Of a DNA stretch of 64,000 nucleotides, positions 48,240 through 49,582 are shown piece by piece. Each line of letters starts with the position of its first letter. The first letter of the stretch is position 1. A program made the translations under genes and the position numbers. This DNA comes from Escherichia coli. Lineage in GTDB: Bacteria; Pseudomonadota; Gammaproteobacteria; Enterobacterales; Enterobacteriaceae. The notes beneath the pieces were generated by a model, which did no database searches, was not told where the DNA came from, and saw nothing but the letters and a program-made list of their open reading frames with translations. Location: NCBI RefSeq assembly GCF_003334305.1, contig NZ_QOWS01000010.1. The stretch is one strand, 5' to 3'.

Positions 48240-49175
48240 TTACCACTTTTGTTCAATTGCCCCCGCTTTCAGCAACTCCACATCCTTGCCGTTAATGGTT
48301 GCCGTTGCGGCAACGATTGTGGTCCTTACAGTTGCACAAGATTTTCGCTCAAATTCCGGTTTATAAAGAATAAGAGACGAATTACTGGTAAATGAACCAA
48401 ATAGGTAATCAGTAAAGCTAATATTCAGCCGGTTTAAACCGAAAGGCGCGAAGCCAACCGTTTGGTTAATCTCCTTACCGGATGGGCGACGAATGCTGAA
48501 TGTCACGCGAAGATTGGCCACTTCGCCTAATTTATTGGTGGTGGCGAAGAGGCTATCCATGCAGGAAAAACCTTTATCTAAAAAATTATCTCGCATCCCA
48601 GAACGGGTAACCGTAATCACGGGTAACGTATCGTCAACCGTTTTTCTGTCAATCATGTCTTTTCGACAAGTAGCCAGAAAGTTTTCTGGGCCACCATAAA
48701 TGTGGACACCTTTATCAAGATATTCCTTCGCTTTCTTACAATCTACCTCAACATACTGACCATTGGCGTACATAATGCCCAACCTGGACCATGCTAAATT
48801 CACACCGTGCTGCGCGGCCTGATTAAATAGTGCATACGCTTTGGCATAATCCACCCGCACCTGCTCACCGTCGTAGTAGATACCCCCCAGCGCTAACGGA
48901 GCTTCTCTGTCACCTTGTTTAGCCGCTAACTCGAACCATTTAATCGCTTCCTGAACATCAGGTTTGGTATCATAACGAGGCTGATAATATTCCCAGCCTA
49001 ACAGGCTCTGCGCGTCGATATCTCCCGATTCAGCCATTTTATGCAGTGTATTTATAACATCGGGAGCAGGTTTACCACCGTATATGCTGTCATACAATTC
49101 ATGCGCTTTCTCGCTGGCCACCACGCTTGGTGAAACTATCAGCATTACAGAAAATAATATTCTTTTAGTTAACAT
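48240..49175 (-). CDS. secreted Sel1-like repeat protein with unassigned C-terminal domain (311 aa from ATG 49175; track ORF extends to 49235)
   Basis: Signal-peptide-like N-terminus MLTKRILFSVMLIVSPSVVAS; three Sel1-type repeats (e.g. AIKWFELAAKQGDREAPLALGGIYYDGEQVRVDYAKAYALFNQAAQHG); ~170-aa Ser/Thr/Phe-rich C-terminal region with no motif I recognise; gene is visibly AT-rich. Confidence 0.62.
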   Translation of the reverse strand: MLTKRILFSVMLIVSPSVVASEKAHELYDSIYGGKPAPDVINTLHKMAESGDIDAQSLLGWEYYQPRYDTKPDVQEAIKWFELAAKQGDREAPLALGGIYYDGEQVRVDYAKAYALFNQAAQHGVNLAWSRLGIMYANGQYVEVDCKKAKEYLDKGVHIYGGPENFLATCRKDMIDRKTVDDTLPVITVTRSGMRDNFLDKGFSCMDSLFATTNKLGEVANLRVTFSIRRPSGKEINQTVGFAPFGLNRLNISFTDYLFGSFTSNSSLILYKPEFERKSCATVRTTIVAATATINGKDVELLKAGAIEQKW

Positions 49176-49582
49176 GTATACCTTTATGTCCTCACTGTCA
49201 TATATTTCCATAATAATTAACCACCAAACATCCATTTAATGAATAAATACAGTGCCATAAAGGTCCAAGTAATAAGCACACATTTAGCCTGAAACATTAT
49301 CATCCATGTCACCAAATCGTTTATTTAGTGAGATAAAACTAGCATATTCGTAAGATAAAAAATGCACATAGCAATCAAGAAATGATATTATTACTTTTTT
49401 GATGTAAAACTATTTAGTTTTAAAATTCATTTTTTCAACATATAGAGCATTCATTTTATGAATGCAAAAAAACATACCTGACACACAAATTACTCTCCTC
49501 TGTAATATTTTCTCATTAACACTCTGTTTACCCAACATGCGCTCCGCACTACACTATGTGGGCATTTTTTTAAGGGGTGGTA

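Follow-up and report, generated by a model that had tools for sequence, protein, structure and literature searches.

In a 64,000-nucleotide stretch of Escherichia coli chromosome (contig NZ_QOWS01000010.1; hereafter the window), we analyzed the minus-strand gene located in the gap between cyoE and yajR, referred to here as the Sel1 gene. Our results indicate that this gene probably encodes an autonomous, Sec-exported binding protein made of two modules, with no enzymatic domain, which works independently of the neighboring ItaR/ItaT toxin–antitoxin (TA) pair. The protein would be exported through the Sec pathway and, after cleavage of its signal peptide, would have a mass of ~32 kDa. Its first module would be a short Sel1-like repeat (SLR) solenoid, consisting of three canonical repeats and a disulfide-bridged capping helix pair, and its second a disulfide-stabilized β-sandwich of the fibronectin type III (FNIII)/Ig-like type, a remote homologue of interleukin receptor mimic protein A (IrmA). 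It would function by binding to a partner protein, either within the periplasm or outside the cell once released, and the groove of the solenoid and the Ig-like domain would serve as binding or oligomerization surfaces. Export, disulfide formation, binding function and cellular location are what we infer for this protein; no catalytic domain was found in it.

Reading frame, start codon and export signal

The Sel1 open reading frame (ORF) is a real gene, because the exact 311-residue protein was found on at least 1000 contigs, homologues were detected down to 35% identity, and the ratio of nonsynonymous to synonymous substitution rates (dN/dS) between the window and the allele of E. coli WL297 was 0.195 overall. 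The ratio was 0.14 for the SLR part and 0.23 for the IrmA-like part; the gene is under purifying selection, and its reading frame was intact in the complete genomes sampled. The Prokaryotic Genome Annotation Pipeline (PGAP) labels it in other E. coli as a "tetratricopeptide repeat protein" of 311 amino acids (WP_001297127.1 in a B strain), and the database names of the protein are mostly generic repeat-protein labels. The name "zinc-dependent hydrolase" on some entries is probably spurious. On the irmA island of strain CFT073 (L011, 29724-33274), ~10 kb upstream of irmA, a 378-residue SEL1-like repeat protein is found together with a 180-residue hypothetical protein and a fragment of a DUF2268 Zn-protease, and this cluster may be the source of the name "putative zinc-dependent hydrolase".

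The ORF list of the window gives a minus-strand frame of 331 codons at 48240..49235, which was taken as the gene in the first-pass annotation. The frame and its strand were confirmed, and the start moves to the ATG at 49175, so that the coding sequence of the 311-residue protein almost certainly spans 48240..49175 (stop codon at 48240-48242), as supported by the ORF list, PGAP, the homologue alignment and dN/dS. This start is favored because a Shine–Dalgarno-like AAGG (49181..49184, minus strand), read from the sequence, lies 5 nt upstream of it, all homologues possessing an N-terminus, down to 35% identity, begin at the equivalent of MLTKR in the alignment, the PGAP start is identical, and a canonical signal peptide is obtained only from this codon. 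Starting at 49235 adds 20 residues and places an acidic stretch ahead of the signal peptide, and direct reading upstream of that ATG revealed no motif comparable to the AAGG. The 60 nt at 49176-49235, previously regarded as coding, are part of the upstream intergenic region.

Residues 1–20 (MLTKRILFSVMLIVSPSVVA; 49116..49175, minus strand) have the features of a Sec-type signal peptide, as the first-pass annotation had recognized, with cleavage predicted after VVA and before SEK. The call is a heuristic inspection of residues: the n-region contains K4 and R5, the core ILFSVMLIV reaches a Kyte-Doolittle mean of up to 2.8, and V and A occupy positions -3 and -1. The same layout is kept in the alignment by homologues possessing the N-terminus, and residues 1–19 had a predicted local distance difference test (pLDDT) score of <50 in the AlphaFold2 (AF2) model. 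No lipobox cysteine was seen in the signal peptide on inspection. Two conserved cysteine pairs, 146/170 and 205/280, fit an oxidizing compartment. These features suggest that the protein is Sec-exported and either periplasmic or secreted.

Structure of the two modules

The full-length AF2 model, built on an alignment of 18 sequences (homologues down to 35% identity), had a pLDDT of 87.7 and a predicted template modelling (pTM) score of 0.84, with helices up to residue 178 and a β domain at residues 187–310. Four cysteines, C146, C170, C205 and C280, were invariant in this alignment.

The SLR α-solenoid covers residues 21–178 (48642..49115, minus strand). The three repeats counted in the first-pass annotation were recovered as three Pfam Sel1 matches at 48711-49016, namely residues 74–109 (E = 4.9e-7), 115–144 (E = 6.4e-4) and 151–175 (E = 7.3e-3) in the 331-residue numbering; as tandem α/α repeats matching the hidden Markov model (HMM), they place the protein among the Sel1-like repeat proteins (PF08238). 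AF2 predicted about four consecutive helix pairs at residues 37–178, with pLDDT mostly >90. Profile comparison of the family with solved SLR proteins gave E values down to 1e-77, including 1e-76 for EsiB (4bwr). In the model, residues 146–178 form an extra helix pair after the canonical repeats, which is predicted to be disulfide-bridged: the invariant Cys146 (48738-48740) and Cys170 (48666-48668), whose codons on the minus strand were checked, both lie in this last pair of the solenoid and probably bridge it. NCBIfam models gave only sub-threshold matches to the Sel1 part, to MerG, AlgK, MotX and ExoR (for MerG, 35.7 bits against a curated cut-off of 350), and these reflect generic repeat similarity. 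The earlier general statement that Sel1 proteins act as protein-interaction scaffolds stands.

Residues 184–311 (48243..48626, minus strand) were assigned to an IrmA-like FNIII/Ig-like β-sandwich by structure comparison and profiles. The first-pass annotation had described an unassignable C-terminal domain of ~170 residues and had proposed structure prediction and a Foldseek search of this region. The β domain proved to be shorter, ~130 residues (184–311), since residues 146–178 belong to the helix pair, and three kinds of comparison point to IrmA. IrmA is the product of c1275 of uropathogenic E. coli (UPEC) CFT073 (PF18673; PDB 5EK5) (PMC4807369). In a Foldseek search of the AF2 model against the whole PDB, the IrmA structure 5ek5 was the sole match at E <= 0.001 (E = 1.3e-5; template modelling (TM) scores of 0.61/0.69), and the next match had an E value of 9e-3. 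The seven-stranded FNIII-like β-sandwich of the IrmA fold is present in the modelled domain of the window protein; a domain-only AF2 model of the tail had a pLDDT of 79.

The second comparison was that of the Pfam IrmA model PF18673 with relatives of the domain. It matched two of 19 relatives at E <= 0.001 (best E = 4.3e-5) and five of 19 at E <= 0.1. P0022, a full-length protein 43% identical to the window protein, matched at residues 385–479 (E = 0.001; model positions 15–102 of 109) and P0048 at E = 0.094, while P0026 and P0018 showed no match to this model. Third, hhalign of the domain profile with the profile of IrmA homologues gave an E value of 0.0025 and aligned C205 and C280 with C46 and C105 of the IrmA precursor, which, by position, become Cys21 and Cys80 of mature IrmA after subtraction of 25. 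A disulfide between Cys21 and Cys80 is present in mature IrmA and is unusual for FNIII domains (PMC4807369). By this alignment, a Cys205–Cys280 bond would be its counterpart in the window protein. Cys205 (48561-48563, minus strand) and Cys280 (48336-48338, minus strand) were also near-invariant (>=90%) in the wider domain alignment A2.

Among 1.84 billion representatives, only 26 proteins matched the tail alone at E <= 0.001. In those of full length, Sel1 repeats come first and the tail forms the C-terminus; the others were short and for the most part fragments, and a few weak matches look unrelated. With the tail alone, Pfam gave no match, the profile found nothing below E = 0.25 among PDB sequences, NCBIfam gave sub-threshold Sel1-type matches only, and PADLOC returned a single PtuA match at noise level, in which no stretch was aligned. 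The assignment of the tail as a divergent IrmA-like FNIII/Ig-like domain is solid at the level of the fold, and common ancestry with IrmA is probable on transitive evidence.

Candidate functions and allelic history

Several results weigh against the reading of the Sel1 gene as an autonomous, exported two-module binding protein. The window protein did not match the Pfam IrmA model even at E <= 10, the hhalign probability for IrmA was just 12%, and a narrow IrmA-family HMM and the reverse search gave nothing significant; the narrow HMM was too shallow because its homologues are all >=56% identical. Homology, as opposed to convergence of fold, rests on transitive and structural evidence for these reasons. 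Export was predicted by inspection of the sequence, and the searchable literature contained no expression or localization data on the gene. In E. coli the gene is linked almost perfectly to itaRT, which makes a lineage-specific interaction possible, and the order cyoE-itaR-itaT-Sel1 also occurs in a Pseudocitrobacter metagenome-assembled genome (MAG). Finally, the gene decays in some strains. In GB089 (L024, 1441-3637), a strain otherwise 100% identical to the window, an IS3 element splits it into two annotated pseudogene pieces. In HH97 (L025, 2375-3548), the cyoE–yajR gap measures 1.17 kb and contains a 333-bp, 84%-identical Sel1 remnant with neither itaRT nor any annotated gene, which looks like an intermediate stage of loss, and many Sel1-protein entries of Shigella sonnei and E. 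coli are fragmentary. The Sel1 gene is dispensable.

A specific version of the two-module reading, rather than a competitor of it, is a periplasmic envelope adaptor or regulator that binds a resident sensor, a cell-wall enzyme or a machine component, in the manner of ExoR, EnhC, MotX, AlgK and MerG. We regard this version as possible, though with less than even confidence. It is consistent with the signal peptide without a lipobox, the conserved cysteine pairs, the sub-threshold NCBIfam matches, the spread of the family across Enterobacterales of differing lifestyles, and the stand-alone position of the gene, which has no conserved operon partner. However, the NCBIfam scores are far under their cut-offs, most E. 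coli can dispense with the gene, and no conserved partner gene adjoins it that would suggest a target. An envelope or periplasmic partner is nevertheless favored over a mammalian immune ligand, because the family occurs in plant pathogens and Achromobacter and because the window domain is basic (isoelectric point (pI) 9.5), whereas IrmA is acidic.

Another possibility, a host-interaction factor that is released and sequesters host immune proteins like IrmA and EsiB, appears unlikely. In its favor, both modules are related to E. coli proteins tied to host immunity, IrmA being the closest fold and the EsiB structure 4bwr among the best SLR matches. EsiB binds secretory IgA, a function echoed in our results solely by the name of an AFDB entry. 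IrmA is secreted and binds IL-2, IL-4 and IL-10 in vitro (PMC4807369). Against it, a mammalian cytokine is unlikely as a general ligand since the family occurs in plant pathogens and Achromobacter; the basic domain contrasts with the acidic surface of IrmA (PMC4807369); the periplasm is the default location, as neither a secretion system nor a lipobox was found; and the gene is present in commensal HS and in the laboratory strains B/BL21.

Allelic divergence bears on the same question. Between the window and WL297, dS was 0.42 for the Sel1 gene, compared with 0.04 for itaR, 0.10 for itaT, 0.13 for cyoE and 0.22 for yajR, and such deep divergence is a pattern common for exposed proteins. In sliding windows, dS fell from ~0.3–1.1 to ~0.05–0.13 near codon 250 (codons 250–311 correspond to ~48243-48425). 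This collapse suggests a homologous-recombination breakpoint inside the Sel1 gene, and it suggests that the 3′ end shares its history with itaRT and cyoE and that the rest of the gene has a deeper one. The excess of dS thus stops at the breakpoint, which points to mosaic ancestry. The overall dN/dS gave no sign of positive selection, and sliding-window dN/dS ranged from 0.04 to 0.22, the last ~60 codons being unreliable as dS collapses there.

A broader form of the host idea, in which the Sel1 + IrmA-like fusions would be an unrecognized exported family of Enterobacterales whose members capture proteins of the host or the extracellular medium (for example cytokines, immunoglobulins or defense proteins of plants or animals), is somewhat less likely still. 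If it were true, an IrmA-type Ig-like module, possibly dimerizing by strand swap, would be coupled to a Sel1 solenoid, stand-alone IrmA would represent the smallest version of a more widespread binding module, and even commensal HS and laboratory BL21 would possess a member of the family.

We also considered that the 311-residue form could be a decaying, functionless leftover of a ~480–500-residue ancestor as seen in Salmonella and Pectobacterium. The longer relatives (478–598 residues, with more repeats), the absence of the gene from ~75% of complete E. coli genomes, and its disruption by an insertion sequence or reduction in some strains, together with the many Shigella fragments, agree with this idea. 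It is very improbable, however: the short form carries a signal peptide of its own, dN/dS is ~0.2 in both domains, the sampled complete genomes retain an intact frame, and a form of 308–313 residues is conserved down to 58% identity beside a long paralogue in other genera. E. coli retains the short paralogue only.

The cyoE–yajR gap, ItaR/ItaT and known systems

The gap between cyoE, at the end of cyoABCDE, and yajR is ~150 bp in K-12/O157 and holds three genes in the window. Two of them, at 47347-48184 on the plus strand, are a DUF1778/GNAT pair labelled by PGAP as a DUF1778/TacA-family antitoxin and a GNAT acetyltransferase, and they correspond to the published ItaR/ItaT module; the GNAT neighbor matched ItaT (PDB 7BYY) with E = 4e-118 over all 180 residues. 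The module was described in strain HS and is virtually identical in BL21(DE3) (ECD_00377-00378); itaR and itaT alone form a type II TA pair, in which ItaT acetylates Ile-tRNA(Ile), its substrate being a cytoplasmic aminoacyl-tRNA (PMC6125619). According to a later study, ItaT also acetylates some other aminoacyl-tRNAs.

In E. coli, itaRT and the Sel1 gene form an island of ~2.3 kb that is lacking in about three quarters of complete genomes. Of 5426 complete genomes, 1368 carry >=80% of the region 47100-49650, including a B-strain derivative; the region is missing from K-12 (Stbl4), O157 Sakai and O127:H6. Counted separately, the Sel1 gene was found in 1371 complete genomes and itaRT in 1369; 1368 had both, in keeping with a small island that is inherited as a unit.

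Outside E. coli, loci were surveyed with exact peptide patterns and a domain alignment of six sequences, which yielded eight loci; as the patterns must match exactly, this survey is a sample and not a census. In Salmonella enterica (L004/L005, 4483-8993), the order is yajR, a 343-residue protein, two long tandem paralogues (503 and 489 residues), both with the IrmA-like tail, and cyoE, with no TA pair; the 343-residue protein between the paralogues and yajR had no Pfam or NCBIfam match. Another enterobacterium (L009) has one 484-residue homologue adjoining cyoE and no TA pair, and Escherichia sp. MOD1-EC7003 has an 83%-identical orthologue beside cyoE with a peptidase fragment in the position of itaRT. 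A long and a short paralogue occur together in a metagenomic enterobacterium (L006/L007), where itaR is accompanied by a truncated remnant of itaT, and in the Pseudocitrobacter MAG (L017), where itaRT is intact and 90% identical to the E. coli pair. In Pectobacterium (five species) and Affinibrenneria, homologues lie at unrelated loci with no ItaRT homologue nearby; the TA pair was absent beside the homologues of L013 and L015 and likewise at four of the five Pectobacterium loci. The family thus reaches plant pathogens (Pectobacterium, Affinibrenneria), and it also includes Achromobacter.

Two observations were made at the Pectobacterium and Affinibrenneria loci. In Pectobacterium carotovorum DSM 30168 (L019, 8394-9140, minus strand), genes for an unrelated DUF1778-like antitoxin and a 150-residue GNAT protein with 24% identity to ItaT are located ~2 kb downstream of the homologue; the other four Pectobacterium loci lack this pair, and chance within a variable region probably accounts for its proximity. 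In addition, a gene for a DJ-1/PfpI-AraC (GlxA-like) regulator precedes the homologue on the same strand (L012, 5022-6068; ~3820-4857 in L019, L020 and L023; same position in L018 and L022). It overlaps the homologue in L012, was detected as two tblastn segments in L022, and is represented by its C-terminal third only in L018; a regulatory link between the two genes is possible.

The first-pass annotation had left open whether the Sel1 gene was independent cargo or a functionally linked third component of the TA pair. That the protein is a third component, for example a sensor, target or accessory regulator, is barely credible. The numbers of co-occurrence in E. coli, the gene order of the Pseudocitrobacter MAG and the unrelated DUF1778/GNAT pair of P. 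carotovorum speak for it, but in E. coli the two are physically linked on a single ~2.3-kb island, and this explains why they occur together. Homologues without the pair, which had been named beforehand as an argument against a shared system, were found in Salmonella, Escherichia sp. MOD1-EC7003, L009, Pectobacterium and Affinibrenneria, so that co-occurrence does not extend across lineages. The two units are convergent on opposite strands and therefore not co-transcribed, the predicted export of the product sets it apart from ItaT, which acts in the cytoplasm on aminoacyl-tRNA (PMC6125619), and itaRT cloned alone into MG1655 works as a two-gene module. Their histories also differ, with a dS of 0.42 for most of the Sel1 gene versus 0.04–0.10 for itaRT. 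The Sel1 gene is not part of the ItaR/ItaT module; "independent" is borne out, and "cargo" is a poor word for it. It is an older resident of the cyoE–yajR gap, vertically inherited as an accessory gene in Enterobacteriaceae, and itaRT looks like a later, mobile arrival in some lineages.

An accessory role for cytochrome bo3 oxidase, like that of COA7, a mitochondrial assembly factor with Sel1 repeats, is similarly remote: cyoE adjoins the gene in Escherichia, Salmonella, the Pseudocitrobacter MAG and another enterobacterium and COA7 (7mqz) was among the SLR profile matches (E = 3e-5), but the gene is convergent to cyoE and hence outside the cyo operon, is missing from most E. coli, whose cyo operon is functional, has homologues away from cyo genes in Pectobacterium, Affinibrenneria and others, and matches COA7 by generic repeat similarity.

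The flanks of the Sel1 gene were also examined. Upstream, an AT-rich intergenic region (49176..49576; 401 bp, 30.4% GC), common to the gene and the divergent yajR, presumably contains its promoter; sigma-70-like motifs in this region were weak matches only, and their count was not above that in shuffled sequence. Downstream, itaT ends at 48184, leaving a gap of 55 bp (48185-48239) to the gene, whose convergent orientation to the TA pair had been correctly noted. Analysis of this gap for an intrinsic terminator found two short GC-rich hairpins with stability not above shuffled sequence (z = -0.78) and no T-run. The gene had also been described as exceeding all other coding sequences of the window in AT content; its GC content of 44.8% is higher than that of itaT (43.3%), tomB (40.5%) and the hha region (40.2%). 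The latter two (13271-13645 and 13671-13889), in the region 12700-13900 downstream of acrB, lie below the Sel1 ORF in GC content, and the 936-bp stretch of lowest GC content in the window (38.4%) begins at 12851, just upstream of tomB/hha.

Searches of the searchable literature by locus tags and topic found nothing on the Sel1 gene or on a Sel1–IrmA fusion; STM0438, a candidate for the Salmonella homologue, is named once in a list of virulence genes. Proteins joining Sel1 repeats to an IrmA-like domain appear not to have been described so far. What the analysis usefully contributes is an assigned domain, a corrected start codon and the separation of the gene from ItaRT. The domain had no annotation and now has a structural assignment; thousands of E. 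coli and Salmonella genomes carry it, the laboratory B/BL21 lineage among them. For the actively studied ItaRT module, the results indicate that no hidden third partner exists at this locus. Practical consequences are modest, the gene being dispensable in most E. coli. The IrmA fold, formerly known only from a small stand-alone vaccine-candidate protein, is widened to a fused, multi-genus family. Cytokine mimicry may not be the ancestral function, because the fused family includes plant pathogens and IrmA homologues also occur in genera not associated with mammals.

Compared with known systems, ItaR/ItaT (7BYY) is the immediate neighbor of the Sel1 gene and shares its ~2.3-kb island in E. coli. 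It is transcribed separately and convergently, its proteins are cytoplasmic and their mechanism is known, and most loci with a Sel1-gene homologue lack it.

Bacterial SLR proteins (EsiB, c5321, 4BWR; Hcp, 1OUV/1KLX; MerG; ExoR; MotX; AlgK) resemble the window protein in having tandem Sel1 repeats after a signal peptide and no catalytic domain. The repeats of the Helicobacter Hcp proteins are disulfide-bridged, and the window protein likewise has a conserved cysteine pair in a helix pair, as judged from its sequence. It differs in having just three canonical repeats and in reaching no curated NCBIfam cut-off, and the SLR structures were aligned to its Sel1 part only.

IrmA is a stand-alone protein of ~150 residues (151 in CFT073) encoded by the agn43-yeeR-irmA operon on genomic islands (PMC4807369), whereas the domain of the window protein is fused to Sel1 repeats and its gene lies between itaT and yajR. 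The two domains are 15–17% identical. IrmA forms a dimer by swapping its C-terminal strand; after the NGK motif, the tail comprises ~14 residues in the window protein versus ~27 in IrmA. IrmA reaches the supernatant by an unknown route (PMC4807369). The difference between the acidic IrmA and the basic window domain argues against identical ligands for these two related folds.

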